The position numbers were made by a program, and so were the translations under genes. The notes beneath the pieces are model-generated. The model searched no databases, was not told where the DNA came from, and saw only the letters and a list, made by a program, of their open reading frames with translations. This document shows, piece after piece, positions 54,620-64,000 of a stretch of DNA of 64,000 bases. Positions within the stretch are counted from its first letter, which is position 1. The number at the start of each line of letters is the position of its first letter. Source of the stretch: Cetorhinus maximus (taxonomy: Eukaryota); contig NW_027597837.1 of the NCBI RefSeq assembly GCF_964194155.1, forward strand, positions 1 through 64,000, read 5' to 3'.

Positions 54620-54686
54620 TCAGCACAGAGGCCCTTCGGTGCAGTACAGCTGAGACACGGTCTTGCTGAGGGCGGGACCCAGGTTT
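54620..54686 (-). CDS. MUS81: MUS81 last coding exon
   Basis: [21 protein letters not shown]. Confidence 0.95.
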
Positions 54687-57600
54687 CTGGGAAGAAAAAT
54701 ATTCGTGCAGTCGGTTAACGTACAGTATTTTATAAAAAAAACTGCATTTCTATAGCGCCTTTCACCGCCTCAGGATGTTCCATCAGCAGCTTGCAGCCCA
54801 TTAAGTACTTCTCTTTTCCCCCCCAACCCCGAAGTGCTGTAAATGTTGGACAGGCGGCAGCCAATTTGCGCACAGCAAGCTCCCACAAACAGCGATGCTG
54901 AGAATGACCCAGACGGTCTATTTTTAGTGATGTTGGTTGAAGGATAAATATTGGCCCCAGGTCACCGGGGAGAACCCCGCCCCCCACCCACCCCTCCCAA
55001 CTCCCCCGTGCTGTTCTTCCAATAGTGGCCGTGGTATCTTTTACACCCACCCGAGAGGGCAGACGGGGCCTCGGTTTAAACTGGCATCTCGGACAGTGCG
55101 ATGAAGGTCTCCGTCAGTACCAGTACTGGGGGTGTCGGCCTGGATTTGGTGCTCGAGTCTCTGGCGTGGGATTGGACCCCACGGCTTTCTGACTCTGAGG
55201 TGAGAGTGTGACTGAGCCATGCTGGGCGAGAATCAAGTTAAAGAAAGGGCACTTCACTCAAACCTCCACGTCCCTTCAGTGGGGCACATCTGTTGGGGAT
55301 CAAATCTAATTCCGCCACCTTCTCCATAAATCTCTTCTGATGGTGGGGTATTAACACGCTTGGGGGGGCAAAAAGAGTGCTTACCGTTGTGTGTTGCCAC
55401 ACTTGATGTTAGACAGCAACTTCTCCCTCCCTCCGGCAGTTGGACACTCCTCATAGGCTTTCATCAGGCTGCCAATCAGAAACGCAGCCAATCAGAAACG
55501 CAGCCAATCAGAAACGCAGCCAATCAGAAACGCAGCCAATCAGAAACGCAGCCAATCAGAAACGCAGCCAATCAGAAACGCAGCCAATCAGAAACGCAGC
55601 CAATCAGAAACGCAGCCAATCAGAAACGCAGCCAATCAGAAACGCAGCCAATCAGAAACGCAGCCAATCAGAAACGCAGCCAATCAGAAACGCAGCCAAT
55701 CAGAAACGCAGCCAATCAGAAACGCAGCCAATCAGGGACACGCCAGTCAGTGAGAGGGTCAGCCAGGGACGTGCCAGTCAGTGAGAGGGTCAGCCAGGGA
55801 CGTGCCAGTCAGTGACGGGGTCAGCCAGGGACACGCCGGTCAGTGAGAGGGTCAGCCAGGGACACGCCGGTCAGTGAGAGGGTCAGCCAGGGACGTGCCG
55901 GTCAGTGACAGGGTCAGCCAGGGACGTGCCGGTCAGTGAGAGGGTCAGCCAGGGACGTGCCAGTCAGTGAGAGGGTCAGCCAAGGACGTGCCGGTCAGTG
56001 AGAGGGTCAGCCAAGGACATGCCGGTCAGTGAGAGGGTCAGCCAAGGACGTGCCGGTCAGTGAGAGGGTCAGCCAGGGACGTGCCGGTCAGTGAGAGGGT
56101 CAGCCAGGGACGTGCCGGTCAGTGAGAGGGTCAGCCAGGGACGTGCCGGTCAGTGAGAGGGTCAGCCAGGGACGTGCCGGTCAGTGAGAGGGTCAGCCAG
56201 GGACGTGCCGGTCAGTGAGAGGGTCAGCCAGGGACGTGCTGGTCAGTGAGAGGGTCAGCCAGGGACACGCAGTGCTCAGTGGGCATATATATTAGACCGG
56301 GTTTTTCCCAGCTTGCCTCACAGGTACTCACATTGCGACGATTATTTGCATCGAGGCCAGTACTAAAGGAACACAGAGATCTCAGAGAGCTGTAGAGGCT
56401 GGAGGAGGTACAGTGATGGGGAGGGTTGTAGGGGCTGGAGGAGTTTACAGAGATAGGGAGGGTTGTAGGGGCTGGAGGAGGTTACAGAGATAGGGAGGGT
56501 TGTAGGGGCTGGAGGAGGTTACAGTGATAAGGAGGATTGTGGGGGCTGGAGGAGGTTACAGAGATAGGGAGGGGTGTTGGGGCTGGTGGAGGTTACAGAG
56601 ATAGGGAGGGTTGTAGGGGCTGGAGTAGGTTACAGAGATGGGGAGGGTTGTAGGGGCTGGGGGAGGTTTGAGAGATAGGGAGTGTTGTAGGGGCTGGAGG
56701 AGGTTACAGAGATAGGGAGGGTTGTAGGGGCTGGAGGAGGTTACAGAGATAGGGAGGGTTGTAGGGGCTGGAGGAGGTTACAGAGATAGGGAGTGTTGTA
56801 GGGGCTGGAGGAGGTTACAGAGATAGGGAGTGTTGTAGGCGCTGGAGGAGGTTACAGAGATAGGGAGTGTTGTAGGCGCTGGAGGAGGTTACAGTGATAA
56901 GGAGGATTGTGGGGGCTGGAGGAGGTTACAGTGATAAGGAGGATTGTGGGGGCTGGAGGAGGTTACAGAGATAGGGAGGGGTGTTGGGGCTGGTGGAGGT
57001 TACAGAGATAGGGAGGGTTGTAGGGGCTGGAGTAGGTTACAGAGATGGGGAGGGTTGTAGGGGCTGGGGGAGGTTTGAGAGATAGGGAGTGTTGTAGGGG
57101 CTGGAGGAGGTTACAGAGATAGGGAGGGTTGTAGGGGCTGGAGGAGGTTACAGAGATAGGGAGGGTTGTAGGGGCTGGAGGAGGTTACAGAGATAGGGAG
57201 GGTTGTAGGGGCTGGAGGAGGTTACAGAGATAGGGAGGGTTGTAGGGGCTGGAGGAGGTTACAGAGATAGGGAGTGTTGTAGGCGCTGGAGGAGGTTACA
57301 GAGATAGGGAGTGTTGTAGGCGCTGGAGGAGGTTACAGTGATAAGGAGGATTGTGGGGGCTGGAGGAGGTTACAGTGATAAGGAGGATTGTGGGGGCTGG
57401 AGGAGGTTACAGAGATAGGGAGGGTTGTAGGGGCTGGAGGAGGTTACAGAGATAGGGAGGGTTGTAAGGGCTGGGGGAGGTTACAGAGATAGGGAGGGTT
57501 GTAGGGGCTGGAGTAGGTTACAGAGATGGGGAGGGTTGTAGGGGCTGGACGAGGTTACAGAGATAGGGAGGGGTGATGGGGCTGGTGGAGGTTACAGAGA

Positions 57601-60600
57601 TAGGGAGGGTTGTAGGGGCTGGAGGAGGTTACAGAGATAGGGAGGGTTGTAGGGGCTGGAGGAGGTTACAGAGATAGGGAGGGTTGTAAGGGCTGGAGGA
57701 GGTTACAGTGATAAGGAGGATTGTGGGGGCTGGAGGAGGTTACAGTGATAAGGAGGATTGTGGGGGCTGGAGGAGGTTACAGAGATAGGGGTGTTGGGGC
57801 TGGAGGAGGTTACAGAGATAGGGAGGGTTGTAGGGGCTGGAGGAGGTTACAGAGATAGGGAGGGTTGTAGGGGCTGGAGGAGGTTACAGAGATAGGGAGG
57901 GTTGTAGGGGCTGGAGGAGGTTACAGAGATAGGGAGTGTTGTAGGGGCTGGAGGAGGTTACAGAGATAGGGAGTGTTGTAGGCGCTGGAGGAGGTTACAG
58001 TGATAAGGAGGATTGTGGGGGCTGGAGGAGGTTACAGTGATAAGGAGGATTGTGGGGGCTGGAGGAGGTTACAGAGATAGGGAGGGGTGTTGGGGCTGGT
58101 GGAGGTTACAGAGATAGGGAGGGTTGTAGGGGCTGGAGGAGGTTACAGAGATAGGGAGGGTTGTAGGGGCTGGAGGAGGTTTGAGAGATAGGGAGTGTTG
58201 TAGGGGCTGGAGGAGGTTACAGAGATAGGGAGGGTTGTAGGGGCTGGAGGAGGTTACAGAGATAGGGAGGGTTGTAGGGGCTGGAGGAGGTTACAGAGAT
58301 AGGGAGGGTTGTAGGGGCTGGAGGAGGTTACAGAGATAGGGAGGGTTGTAGGGACTGGAGGAGGTTACAGAGATAGGGAGGGTTGTAGGGGCTGGAGGAG
58401 GTTACAGAGATAGGGAGTGTTGTAGGGGCTGGAGGAGGTTACAGAGATAGGGAATGTTGTAGGCGCTGGAGGAGGTTACAGTGATAAGGAGGATTGTGGG
58501 GGCTGGAGGAGGTTACAGTGATAAGGAGGATTGTGGGGGCTGGAGGAGGTTACAGAGATAGGGAGGGGTGTTGGGGCTGGTGGAGGTTACAGAGATAGGG
58601 AGGGTTGTAGGGGCTGGAGGAGGTTACAGAGATAGGGAGGGTTGTAGGGGCTGGAGGAGGTTACAGAGATAGGGAGGGTTGTAAGGGCTGGGGGAGGTTA
58701 CAGAGATAGGGAGGGTTGTAGGGGCTGGAGTAGGTTACAGAGATGGGGAGGGTTGTAGGGGCTGGACGAGGTTACAGAGATAGGGAGGAGGGATGAGGAG
58801 GCCATGAGGAGTTGTGGACACGAGGATGTGATTAAATACAGAGGCGTTTGAGGTCTGTGAGTATGGTGGGTCAGTCAGTGAGGGGGACTTGTTGCGATAC
58901 CCAGGAGAGCTGAAGTTTACAGAGGGTGGCAGGGGGGAGGCTGCGCAGAAAGGCATTGGAATACTCAGGAGTTTAAGGAAAGCAGGGGTGAAAGTTCCAG
59001 GAGCAAACCCGCTGCCCACAAGGGCGGTGGAAGCAGAGCTGATAAACCATTACAGAAGGAAGTTGAATGGACAATTGAGGGAATATTCATTCATGGGATG
59101 CAGGCATCACTGGCTGGGCCAGCATTTATTGCCCATCCCTAATTGCCCCTTGAGAAGGTGGTGGTGAGCCGCCTTACTGAACCGCTGCAGTCCCTGTGGT
59201 GTAGGTACACCCACAGCGCTGTTAGGGAGGGAGTTCCAGGATTTTGACCCAGCGACAGTGAAGGAACGGCCGATATAGTTCCAAGTCAGGATGGTGAGTG
59301 GCTTGGAGGGGAACTTGCAGGTGGTGGTGTTCCCCATGTGTCTGCTGCCCTTGTCCTTCTAGGTGGGAGTGGTCGTGGGTTTGGAAGGTGCTGTTGGAGT
59401 GTTGAAGGAGTCTTGGCGATGTTATGGAGCTGGGGGAGAGGGGAAAATGGGGTCTTGCGCTCTGAGTACTGAAGAGCACGTCTGACACATACCTGGCCAC
59501 CGAATCATAGTGGCGGAGGATGGCGACTGCTTTTTCTCCGCTGATGCCGTTGATTTGCATCAACTGCTTTGCAAATACCTCCTTCACAGTCTGTGCCTGT
59601 AAAACAACAGCAACATTCACCAACCAGCCCTTGCATTGATATAACGCCTTTAACATAGTAAAGCGCCTCGTGGGGGGACAAAACTGAGCACCGAGCCACC
59701 GAAGCAACGTTAACGGAGAGAGATGATTTGGGTTGTTATCATATTGCAGTTTGTGGGATCTTCCTGTGCGCTTTTCCTATAGTGATCACACTTTGACTAC
59801 TCAATTGCCTGGGAAGTGCTTCAGGAAATCCTGGGGTGGTGAAAGATGACAGAGAAACATATGTCTGTCTATATTAGGAGATATTAGGAACAGGTGACCA
59901 AAAGCTGGGTCAAAGAGGTCAGTTCAAAGGTCGGTCTCAAAGGAAGAGAGAGAGAGAGAGAGAGAGAGAGGCCGAGAAGTTGAGGGAGGGAATTCCGGAG
60001 CTCAGAGACACAGGCAGCTGAAGGCACGGCCACCAATGGTGGAGCGATGGGAATCGGGATGCACGGGAGGTCAGAATTAGAAAGTGGTGTAAGGGCTGGA
60101 GGAGGTTACAGAGATAGGGAGGGTTGTAGGGGCTGGACGAGGTTACAGAGATAGGGAGGGATGCAGGGGCTGGAGGAGGTTACAGAGATAGGGAGTGTTG
60201 TAGGGACTGGAGGAGGTTACAGAGACAGGGAGGGTTGTAGGGGCTGGAGGAGGTTACAGAGATAGGGAGGGTTGTAGGGGCTGGAGGAGGTTACAGAGAT
60301 AGGGAGGGTTGTAGGGACTGGAGGAGGTTACAGAGACAGGGAGGGTTGTAGGGGCTGGAGGAGGTTACAGAGACAGGGAGGGTTGTAGGGTCTGGAGGAG
60401 GTTACAGAGATAGGGAGGGTTGTAGGGGCTGGAGGAGGTTACAGAGATAGGGAGGGTTTAGGGGCTGGAGGAGGTTACAGAGATAGGGAGGGTTGTAGGG
60501 ACTGGAGGAGGTTACAGAGACAGGGAGGGTTGTAGGGGCTGGAGGAGGTTACAGAGATAGGGAGGGTTGTAGGGACTGGAGGAGGTTACAGAGATAGTGT

Positions 60601-63600
60601 TGTAGGGGCCGGAGGAGGTTACAGAGATAGGGAGGGTTGTAGGGGCTGGAGGAGGTTACAGAGATAGGGAGGGGTGTAGGGGCTGGAGGAGGTTACAGAG
60701 ATAGGGAAGGTTGTCGGGGCTGCAGGAGGTTACAGAGATAGGGAGGGTTGTAGGGGCCGGATGAGGTTACAGAGATAGTGTTGTAGGGGCCGGAGGAGGT
60801 TACAGAGATAGGGAGGGTTGTAGGGGCTGGAGGAGGTTACAGAGATAGGGAGGGGTGTAGGGGCTGGAGGAGGTTACAGAGATAGGGAAGGTTGTAGGGG
60901 CTGGAGGATGTTACAGAGACAGGGAGGGTTGTAGGGGTTGAAGGAGGTTACAGAGATAGGGAGGGTTGTAGGGACTGGAGGAGGTTACAGAGATAGGGAG
61001 GGTTGTAGGGGCTGGAGGAGGTTACAGAGATAGGGAGGGTTGTAGGGGCTGGAGGAGGTTACAGAGATAGGGAGGGTTCTAGGGGCTGGAGGAGGTTGCA
61101 GAGATAGGGAGGGTTCTAGGGGCTGGAGGAGGTTACAGAGATAGGGAGGGCTTAGGGGCTGGAGGAGGCTACAGAGATAGGGAGGGTTGTAGGGGCTGGA
61201 GGAGGTTACAGAGACAGGGAGGGTTGTAGGGGTTGAAGGAGATTACAGAGTTAGGGAGGGTTGTAGGGACTGGAGGATGTTACAGAGATAGGGAGGGTTG
61301 TAGGGGCTGGAGGAGGTTACAGAGATAGGGAGGGTTGTCGGGGCTGGAGGAGGTTACAGAGATAGGGAGGGTTGTAGGGGCTGGAGGAGGTTACAGAGAT
61401 AGGGAGGGTTGTAGGGGCTGGAGGAGGTTACGGAGATAGGGAGGTTTGTAATGGCTGGAGGAGGTTACAAAGATAGGGAGGGTTGTAGGGGCTGGAGGAG
61501 GTTACAGAGATAGGGAGGGTTGTAGGGGCTGGAGGAGGTTACAGAGATAGGGAGGGTTGTAGGGGCTGGAGGAGGTTACAGAGATAGGGAGGGTTGTAGG
61601 GGCTGGAGGAGGTTACAGAGATAGGGAGGGTTGTAGGGGCTGGAGGAGGTTACAGAATGGGAAGGTGAGATTCAGCAATGAGACTGGAAGAAAGGGATGG
61701 TCACTCTGGCGAAGCAGTGGTATGAAGGTTCTGTGAGCTACCATGGTCTGCAATACAGATTTACTCTGCGGGCAGTCAGTCAGTCAGTCAGTTCTTCAGG
61801 CTCGAGCAGCCAAAGTCGAGGAGATGAGCGAGAAGTGGAGAGGACTTGCTCACCCTGTTTTTCATGGCTCCTTCATTGAAATCGCTGAAGGTCAGGAGAA
61901 CACAGGTGTCAGAGTCGGTATCCTTCCTGCTACAGGCAGCCAGTTCCTCTTTCCTGCAGCTCAATAGCGTCTTTTGCTGGGAAGTATAATAGAGAAATCA
62001 TTTCAACATTCCCGAGCCTGCTCCCCAATAAGATCATGGCTAATCTTACCGTGGCCTCGATTCCACTTTCCTGTCAGCCCTCCCATAACCTTTCACTCCC
62101 TCATCGATCAAAAATCTAACTCAGCCTTGAATATATTCAGTGACCCAGCCTCCTCTCTCTGAGGGAAAGAGTGTTGCACAGATTCTCGACCCTCAGAGAA
62201 AAAATCCCTCACCTCCGTCTTAAACGGGAGACCCATTATTTTGCTCCCTAGTTCTAAATTCCTCCACGAGGTAAATCTTCCTCTCCGCGTCTACCCTGTC
62301 CAGCCCCCTCAGGAACTTATGTGTTTCAATAAGGTCACCTCTCGTTCTTCTAAACTCCAATGGATACAGGCCCAACCTGCTCAACTTTTCCTCATAAGAC
62401 AAACCCTCTTCATCCCAGGAATCAGCCGAATGAATCTTCTCTGAACTGCCTCCATAGCAAGTATACCCCTCCTTAAGTAAGGTGACCAAAACCATACTTG
62501 TTACTGAGACCAGAACTAGGGGACCGTCAATCGAAGATAGTCACTAATAAATCCAAATCGGGAAGTCAGGAGTAGCGTCTTCACCCAGAGAGCAGTGAGA
62601 ATGGGGAACTCACTCCCACACAGAGCAGTCAAGGTGAATAATGTAGACAAATTTAAGGGGGAAACTCTTTATTTATTCATTCATGGGATGTGGGCTTCAT
62701 TGGCTGGGCCAGAATTTATTGCCCATTCCTTGTTGCCCCTTGAGAAGGTGGTGGCGAGCTGCCTTAATGAGCCGCTGTAGTCCCTGTGGTGTAGGTACAC
62801 CCTCAGTGCTGTTAGGGAGGGAGTTCCAGGATTTTGACCCAGTGACAGTGAAGGAACGGCCGATATATTTCCAAGTCAGGATGGTGAGTGGCTTGGAGGG
62901 GAACTTGCAGGTGGTGGTGTTCCCATGTATCTGCTGTCCTTGTCCTTCTAGATGGTAGTGGTCGTGGGTTTGGAAGGTGCTGCCTAAGGAGCCTTGGTGA
63001 ATTCCTGCAGTGCATCTTGTAGATGGTACACACACTGCTGCTACTGTGCGTCGGTGGTGGAGGGAGTGAATATTTGTGGATGTGGTGTTAATCAAGCGGC
63101 TGCTTTGTCCTGGACGGTGTCAAGTTTCTTGAGTGTAGTGGGAGCTGCACTCATCCAGGCAAGTGGAGAGTATTCCATCACACTCCTGACTTATGCCTTG
63201 TAGATGGTGGACAGGCTTTGGGGAGTCAGGAGGTGAGTTACTCGCCGCAGGATTCCCAGCCTCTGACCTGCTCTTGTAGCCACAGTGTTTATATGTCTAG
63301 TCCACTTCAGTTTCTGGTCAATGCTAACCCTTCAGGATGTTGATAGTGGGGGATTCAGTGCTGGTAATGCCATTGAACGTGAAGGGGCGATTGTTGGGAT
63401 TCTCTCTTGTTGGAGATGGTCATTGCCCATTGCCTGGCACTTGTGTGGCGTGAATGTTACTTGCCGCCTGTCGTTATGAGGGAGAAGGGAATCCAAGGAT
63501 TTGGTGGGGGTGGGAGGAGGCTCGTGTGGAGAATAAACACCAGCATCGAGCAGGCAGGTCGAATGGGATGTGTCTGTGGTGCAAATACTCTTTAAGCATC

Positions 63601-63707
63601 TTGGCACCTACCAGGTAGAGATTCTGCAGGAATCTGGTCATGATCGTGAGGTAAGCTGCCGATTCCTTTACGTCTTTGGTCCGCTTAACAAAAAATCCAT
63701 CGACAAC
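54620..63707 (-). CDS. MUS81: Crossover junction endonuclease MUS81, last five coding exons (gene continues beyond the window)
   Basis: Exons 63707-63612, 61976-61854, 59596-59493, 55468-55385, 54686-54620: end of the ERCC4 domain and C-terminal HhH; GT-AG with consistent phases. Confidence 0.95.
54733..55222 (-). mobile_element. Near full-length DeuSINE (SacSINE1-like)
   Basis: tRNA-like head tggctcagt..gggtccaatccc, Deu-like body aaaccgaggccccgtctgccctctc..ccaatatttatcc, tail aaggcgctatagaaatgcag. Confidence 0.85.
55385..55468 (-). CDS. MUS81: MUS81 penultimate exon
   Basis: [29 protein letters not shown]. Confidence 0.93.
55471..55735. repeat. Perfect 16-bp tandem repeat (gccaatcagaaacgca) with 17 CCAAT cores
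   Basis: Units start at 55471+16k for k=0-16; directly abuts the MUS81 acceptor. Confidence 0.97.
55735..56268. repeat. 31-bp minisatellite (gggacgtgccggtcagtgagagggtcagcca), about 17 copies
   Basis: Direct repeats contiguous with the 16-bp array. Confidence 0.95.
56390..58787. repeat. 37-bp L2-derived minisatellite, about 65 units
   Basis: gggagggttgtaggggctggaggaggttacagagata; L2 flanks on both sides. Confidence 0.96.
59085..59400 (-). mobile_element. RSg-1-like LINE 3' end
   Basis: [41 protein letters not shown]. Confidence 0.85.
59493..59596 (-). CDS. MUS81: MUS81 exon (HhH)
   Basis: [34 protein letters not shown]. Confidence 0.96.
59870..61656. repeat. L2 3' end followed by 37-bp minisatellite (~60086-61656, about 42 units)
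   Basis: Same unit as 56390; flank ggcagctgaaggcacggccaccaatgg. Confidence 0.95.
61854..61976 (-). CDS. MUS81: MUS81 exon
   Basis: [41 protein letters not shown]. Confidence 0.92.
62003..62495 (-). mobile_element. CR1-like LINE 3' portion
   Basis: [39 protein letters not shown]. Confidence 0.88.
62670..63470 (-). mobile_element. RSg-1-like LINE ORF2 C-terminus, inserted within a plus-strand CR1 tail
   Basis: [13 protein letters not shown].. [19 protein letters not shown]..; CR1 3' sequence at 62500-62665 resumes at ~63475. Confidence 0.85.
63612..63707 (-). CDS. MUS81: MUS81 exon (end of ERCC4 nuclease domain)
   Basis: [32 protein letters not shown]. Confidence 0.96.
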
Positions 63708-64000
63708 CTTCAGGGGAAAGGTACAAAGCGAAGGACAGGTATTAACAAGCAGCAACATCCATTTCCAGCGCGAGGTGAGTGGGGAACTACCTCGGTTTAA
63801 AGGTTAACAATGGGACAGGTCTGGAGCACTTTGTTTCAGCAATTTATTACACCGCTGGTCACCTCAGACGCCAGTGTGGGAGGGATGGAAACTATCGCAG
63901 CTTTTCAAAGGTATTTTGAAAAGAAAAACGGAAAAAATGGGTGCGAAGAAAAGGGAAGAGACGGAGAGTAAGAGAGAGGGGGGCAGGGGAGGGGGGTACG

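Follow-up and report, generated by a model that had tools for sequence, protein, structure and literature searches.

This work indicates that the intron preceding the penultimate coding exon of MUS81 in Cetorhinus maximus ends in a 768-nt zone without a single AG, made wholly of two minisatellites that carry branch-point motifs, and that this arrangement most likely came about as a by-product when repeats expanded and were tolerated, without amounting to a new way of switching splicing. We hold with good, though not full, confidence that the two locus-specific minisatellites arose when the branch region of the acceptor itself expanded locally in tandem, with branching predicted in the ordinary position, at -24 or -40, and that the exon is likely included.

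The window, namely the 64,000 nucleotides analysed here, makes up nearly the whole of an unplaced contig of 64,042 nt in a genome of 3.99 Gb, and tandem repeats account for 26% of it. It carries CCDC85, FIBP and EFEMP2 and, on the minus strand, the five final coding exons of MUS81, whose 3' end converges with that of EFEMP2; the remainder of MUS81 is found on two further small contigs, and the gene is spread over three unplaced contigs. A separate contig stretch, G000:C3897:1-1132, overlaps window positions 62869-64000 with 100% identity across 1132 nt. The identity of MUS81 was given by a PDB MUS81 match of the upstream exon (E 4.8e-10) plus protein alignment, and the 13 matches of the protein search all came from sharks or rays; a protein identical to the product of the window carries a basking shark label from its source. 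This upstream coding exon of 104 nt (59493-59596, minus strand) is followed by the GT donor that begins the 4024-nt intron discussed here. The penultimate coding exon of 84 nt (55385-55468, minus strand), of symmetric phase 2-2, was placed by Pfam and alignment within the C-terminal EME1-MUS81_C domain, which both exons matched with scores below the cut-off, and it has a single match genome-wide in a search that may overlook weak matches. The last coding exon (54620-54686, minus strand) runs to the stop codon.

Read on the minus strand, the AG of the acceptor lies at 55470-55469 within GGCAG, supported by sequence and, in organism B, by cover that takes the shape of the exon. Going upstream, the next AG lies at 56240-56239, leaving 768 bases between the two, compared with the AG-free run of 20-80 bases usual before an acceptor. 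An AG count thus confirmed the zone of about 770 nt that the sequence-only reading had described, and TRF and motif counting found its two minisatellites at the copy numbers claimed, namely 16 complete 16-mers and 17 31-mers. The array next to the acceptor (55471-55735, minus strand; TRF 16.6 copies) consists of 16-nt units whose complete copies are 100% identical, with one YNYURAY heptamer per unit; its 17 CTGATTGG cores read on the plus strand as 17 CCAATCAG boxes, its last unit abuts CAG directly, and the array ends 2 nt short of the intron end. The array farther upstream (55736-56262, minus strand; TRF 17.2 copies) consists of 31-nt units, 96% identical, with up to three yUnAy motifs per unit. 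The zone ends within unit 1 of this array, the most distal 31-mer, where a variant, G>A at a CpG, creates the bounding AG (56239-56240, minus strand). In contrast to these AG-free arrays, a mid-intron 37-mer array (56391-58800, minus strand) has an AG in its sense-strand unit; its end coordinate is approximate, as TRF joins the array to a second block reaching 61656.

The length of the zone exceeds chance when set against ordinary acceptors, but not when set against repeat DNA. AG-free zones measure 18-77 nt at the 17 other EFEMP2/MUS81 acceptors; among 30 EGF-exon acceptors, which have one acceptor in common with the set of 17, 29 have zones of 16-74 nt. The zone is poor in A (79 of 768 bases, 10%), AA and TA are likewise absent from it, and shuffling left 67% of the 16-mers and 32% of the 31-mers free of AG. 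Among 116 minisatellite unit-strands sampled, with the MUS81 arrays included, 28 were AG-free and 12 were AG-free with a yUnAy motif. AG-free runs of at least 768 nt occurred 11 times in 200 kb (20 unselected small-contig stretches) and 18 times in 640 kb of mostly gene-bearing stretches, the window included, and the window itself contains a longer run of 804 nt elsewhere. As a caution, a long AG-free zone in repeat-rich shark DNA is not evidence that the branch point is distant or that the exon is regulated. Moreover, no purge of AG is evident within the 31-mer array, where one of seven variant types makes an AG, compared with 11 of 93 possible changes. The sole AG-creating variant is confined to the most distal 31-mer, with C>T at the same CpG in four units closer to the acceptor, and this confinement was counted against the by-product reading, as was the finding that CACTGAC is intact in all 17 31-mers.

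The units carry yUnAy motifs, as had been claimed, and the last 770 nt hold 63 of them, along with 33 full YNYURAY heptamers. The heptamers of the 16-mer array stand at -24, at -40 and then at each further 16 nt, a copy at -8 being probably too near the AG. Judged from heptamer position, the predicted main branch adenosine is 55492 (-24, minus strand), and the next candidate is 55508 (-40, minus strand). The best branch candidates therefore occupy the conventional position and not the remote one that marks a distant branch point. At the far end of the zone no strong pyrimidine tract was found, the longest pyrimidine run in the 768 nt being 7 nt. The claim that an ordinary polypyrimidine tract is missing next to the AG held in part: within the last 40 nt no pyrimidine run is longer than 5, but the last 20 nt contain 12 pyrimidines, which is the low end of the range at the 17 other EFEMP2/MUS81 acceptors (12-19; three of 21 rows in this local set, being chance motif matches, were removed) and is equalled at two other MUS81 acceptors.

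Based on these findings, we propose that slippage or unequal exchange multiplied a 16-nt piece lying between branch point and AG. The copied piece would have been AG-free and branch-motif-bearing at the outset, every extra copy would renew the branch-to-AG spacing, and array length could therefore change at little cost. The 31-mer, which resembles the common C-rich CTCAC/CTGAC repeats of this genome, would be AG-free chiefly through its poverty in A. Selection, if any, would be the usual exclusion of AG from the interval that separates branch point and acceptor; in human, AG-creating variants in this interval make up 41.9% of the analysed pathogenic extended-acceptor variants (PMC9284458). The spliceosome would use the heptamer at -24 or -40 with a short U-rich tract and take the only available AG, and the upstream copies could serve as spare or minor branch points, all leading to the same AG. 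Loss of a distal branch point by deletion was found to matter only modestly if another sits in the expected zone (Taggart, 2017; PMC5378181). With identical branch motifs every 16 nt, the array provides a natural ruler on which distance preference may be read at constant sequence.

The idea that amplification took place on the spot and involved the very branch region agrees with the distribution of the units. An exact 22-mer from the 16-mer array and an exact 24-mer from the 31-mer array occur only at the MUS81 locus in the 4-Gb genome, from which it follows that the arrays grew in place, and the last 16-mer is continuous with CAG. As for the 31-mer being a dimer of the 16-mer, equally good matches were obtained in 37 and 91 of 1000 shuffles for one unit, and in 349 and 81 for the junction variant.

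Both arrays are probably older than the split from the related organisms B and C, as their contig ends suggest. DNA contigs of B and C cross the exon and end at 55500 and 55503, the query stretch likewise ending at 55500; the B record, however, aligned along its full 425 letters and did not extend beyond that end. A k=31 assembly of the window breaks at 55500 exactly, and in simulation the break appeared with a 57-nt array and not with a 41-nt one; the break thus requires about three or more 16-mers. Both organisms also have many contigs of 41-78 nt about 90% like the 31-mer, and these are likely orthologous to the MUS81 array; none of the B and C contigs links 31-mer-like sequence to the unique flank at 56275-56344. 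The apparent sharing with B and C suggests that the arrays are not a fresh accident, which was also counted against the by-product reading.

The analogy to distant branch points and regulated exons, drawn by the sequence-only reading, was not supported, given the heptamers at -24 and -40, the lack of a strong distal tract and the absence of a skip junction from all 16 shark and ray proteins, which are annotation models in which rare isoforms would be missed. The 84-nt exon is present in 15 of these 16 proteins (12 of 13 aligned and all three further ones). In a run of organism B guessed to be RNA, this exon and the last exon were equally covered, at a depth of 25.9, the last exon being part of a 2255-nt contig and the flanking intron bins (55243-55365 and 55489-55500) being uncovered; here inclusion was judged from depth bins, because the junction tables were dominated by a dispersed repeat of the last intron. 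The one run of Cetorhinus maximus guessed to be RNA (X24) gave no cover of the exon, which favours neither inclusion nor skipping. Minor skipping of the exon could still take place, since protein records and contigs drop rare isoforms. A MUS81 isoform of Heterodontus (X2; P0003) departs from the frame exactly at the studied junction and ends nine residues later, for which read-through and an alternative acceptor are possible readings; it was counted against the by-product reading.

AG-free zones made by repeats are already known, and the MUS81 case joins them. Long AG-free zones caused by repeats have been set apart as a group, with a human exon (IDB1079466.8106) having a zone of 369 nt and a branch point at -17 (Gooding, 2006; PMC1431707). 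The MUS81 zone shares with this repeat-derived zone an AG-lacking repeat and a good branch candidate at the usual distance (-24, -40), whereas it is double the length (768 versus 369 nt) and contains two near-perfect minisatellites with a branch motif in every unit. It resembles the distant-branch-point exons (PMC1431707, PMC5378181) in the length of its AG-free zone and in having branch motifs a long way upstream; however, it has no distal branch point with a strong tract, proximal heptamers are present, and the records show no skipping. The MUS81 zone behaves like a repeat-made AG-free zone and lacks two of the features that define the distant-branch-point exons.

A second group of known cases is that of the 37-bp VNTR in intron 7 of human F7 and the 6-16, CBS, lamin B2 and PDGF cases cited with it, in which the nearest copies are mainly used (PMC1557585). 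As in these F7-type minisatellites, the MUS81 unit is copied from an exon-intron edge, a splice signal is multiplied, and the first unit adjoins the splice site without a break. The F7-type arrays, however, repeat 5' donors, whereas that of MUS81 repeats a branch motif without the AG, so that the invariant dinucleotide is not repeated; an array at a COPA acceptor (L182), which does repeat the AG, is the acceptor-side counterpart of the F7 donor VNTR. Human NARS2 likewise has a repeat beside a 3' splice site, and TNA-containing, AG-free sequence lying between branch site and acceptor is predicted in silico to be tolerated there (PMC10078293). The NARS2 unit has no branch motif and displaces the branch point, whereas the shark unit brings its own, and therefore array length should matter little at MUS81. 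A literature search that covered few subscription journals returned no paper on the MUS81 locus or on a branch-point-multiplying minisatellite.

A survey for exons directly following arrays covered 63 stretches with 176 array blocks and yielded 301 candidate peptides, 300 of which were scanned with Pfam; after two weak DUF matches were dropped, 12 of the 14 matches were kept. The array lies within about 20 nt of the acceptor in five of these 12 confirmed exons and 41-108 nt away in seven, the cut at about 20 nt being set post hoc, two of the five near acceptors belonging to one gene, and one far acceptor, in L157 (TB domain), being placed with doubt. Apart from MUS81, three of four abutting arrays are AG-free, compared with 66 of 352 array ends (19%; P=0.023, a post hoc value from small numbers), and a mild filter against AG beside the acceptor is plausible. 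The AG-free zones at these Pfam-confirmed acceptors, built of TC-type repeats, measure 639 nt (L183, about 3585, minus strand), 366 nt (L161, about 4060, plus strand) and 283 nt (L157, about 1170, plus strand), and the three arrays contain no yUnAy motif per consensus unit. Acceptor-adjacent arrays had been expected to be both depleted in AG and enriched in yUnAy; the depletion is plausible, but the enrichment did not appear in these three arrays.

The further claim, that only AG-free expansions survived, is contradicted by COPA, whose acceptor adjoins 34 repeats each containing an AG (L182:2339-3226, in G000:C4408, minus strand; COPA by PDB, E 2.2e-12). The COPA intron end is a 26-mer comprising a CTGAC branch motif, a pyrimidine tract and CAG, present in 34 copies that are 99% identical, and the reading frame agrees with COPA from the last AG only, with about 34 decoy acceptors upstream. 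The COPA array, in which the whole acceptor is repeated, is a sharper test case and arguably more surprising than the MUS81 zone.

The strongest rival explanation, which we nevertheless regard as unlikely, is that selection has favoured the arrays as a store of redundant or distant branch points, which would offset the weak tract or delay splicing and thereby tune inclusion of the in-frame 84-nt exon. The 33 heptamers of the zone, the weak tract, the symmetry of the exon and the apparent presence of the arrays in organisms B and C would all fit such selection, and there is an in silico precedent in NARS2, where TNA-containing, AG-free sequence restores predicted splicing lost through the repeat (PMC10078293). 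The yUnAy density of the 31-mer also favours it, three motifs per unit being rare for its composition (shuffle P=0.00085), which fails to explain them. However, the CTCAC/CTGAC core of the 31-mer recurs in other arrays of the genome. Several of these extend over kilobases at 0.1-0.6 AG per 100 nt, and at such AG-poor arrays rich in CTCAC/CTGAC nothing pointed to a neighbouring exon. The other AG-free abutting arrays lack yUnAy in their units. Proximal heptamers are available and the far end offers no strong tract; furthermore, none of the 16 proteins skips the exon, and skipping would cut the conserved C-terminal domain. A loose end in organism B has a unit in which the branch A is changed to T. 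We retain the tolerated by-product of repeat expansion as the preferred explanation.

A bolder view of the same material, to which we give no more than a small chance, is that dozens of usable branch points, kept as a bank in three related organisms, replace a real tract at MUS81 with copy number setting the splicing rate, that at COPA the last of about 35 look-alike acceptors is the one chosen by the spliceosome, and that minisatellites repeatedly amplify 3' splice signals in the repeat-dense, gene-rich part of shark genomes. If this were true, MUS81 and COPA would be natural test beds for the choice of branch point and AG among identical copies.

Very improbable is an action of the 16-mer array as DNA, in which its 17 CCAATCAG boxes at 16-bp spacing could form a homotypic cluster for the CCAAT-binding factor NF-Y and work as an enhancer or cryptic promoter close to the convergent gene ends. 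The CCAATCAG box occurs 17 times in the array compared with seven times in the remaining window, and tandem CTGATTGG arrays were found at 21 genomic places (51 matches versus one in a reversed control). The AG contained in nine of 15 other CTGATTGG arrays means that they are not a splicing class, and among the 15 of 20 other places inspected by eye none clearly precedes a coding exon. However, a promoter is not expected in a last-but-one intron, and the recurrence may merely reflect amplification of a common word, most other arrays having only 3-9 copies. Some of the CTGATTGG arrays lie in CpG-rich DNA (for example L086, L093, L097 and L102). Two near-identical copies, L098 and L099 (G000:C24), show a three-copy CTGATTGG array, after which come a pyrimidine run, CTGAC and CAG and then, 27 nt further on, GTGAGT; such a layout would be a possible micro-exon.

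Slighter still is the chance that RNA structure stands in for the pyrimidine tract, the arrays pairing with the donor end or folding back. Introns that depend on structure and are defined by simple repeats have been described in fish (PMC4691745), and the 16-mer array can form a G-U-rich hairpin that slightly beats its shuffles (z -1.93; four of 100 as good); however, this hairpin has an ensemble frequency of 0.018 with an almost empty centroid, and for the 31-mer array every one of 100 shuffles folds better than the array itself. Complementary repeats at both intron ends, by which structure-bridged U2AF2-independent introns are recognised, were not found in this intron. Pairing of the arrays with the 150 nt that follow the donor was tried and rejected, shuffles being as good in 288 and 196 of 300. 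That faulty assembly created the array or gave it a badly wrong size, as an unplaced 64-kb contig with 26% tandem repeat might suggest, is equally hard to credit, given the ordered variants among the units, the same-organism short-read contigs (which may be from the source sample) that reproduce the flank and unit variants, and the contig ends of B and C, which agree with a tandem 16-mer.

Other observations linked to repeats were made along the way. Just 3' of a MUS81 donor, at 61770-61800 of the window on the minus strand, a short CTGA tetranucleotide run is followed by CCCGCAG and resembles a cryptic acceptor. Elsewhere in the genome, long runs of near-identical calcium-binding EGF exons occur as tandemly amplified exon-intron units at G000:C20:67.59-67.73 Mb and at C23:70.47-70.73 Mb, those of C20 lying mostly about 2,014 nt apart.
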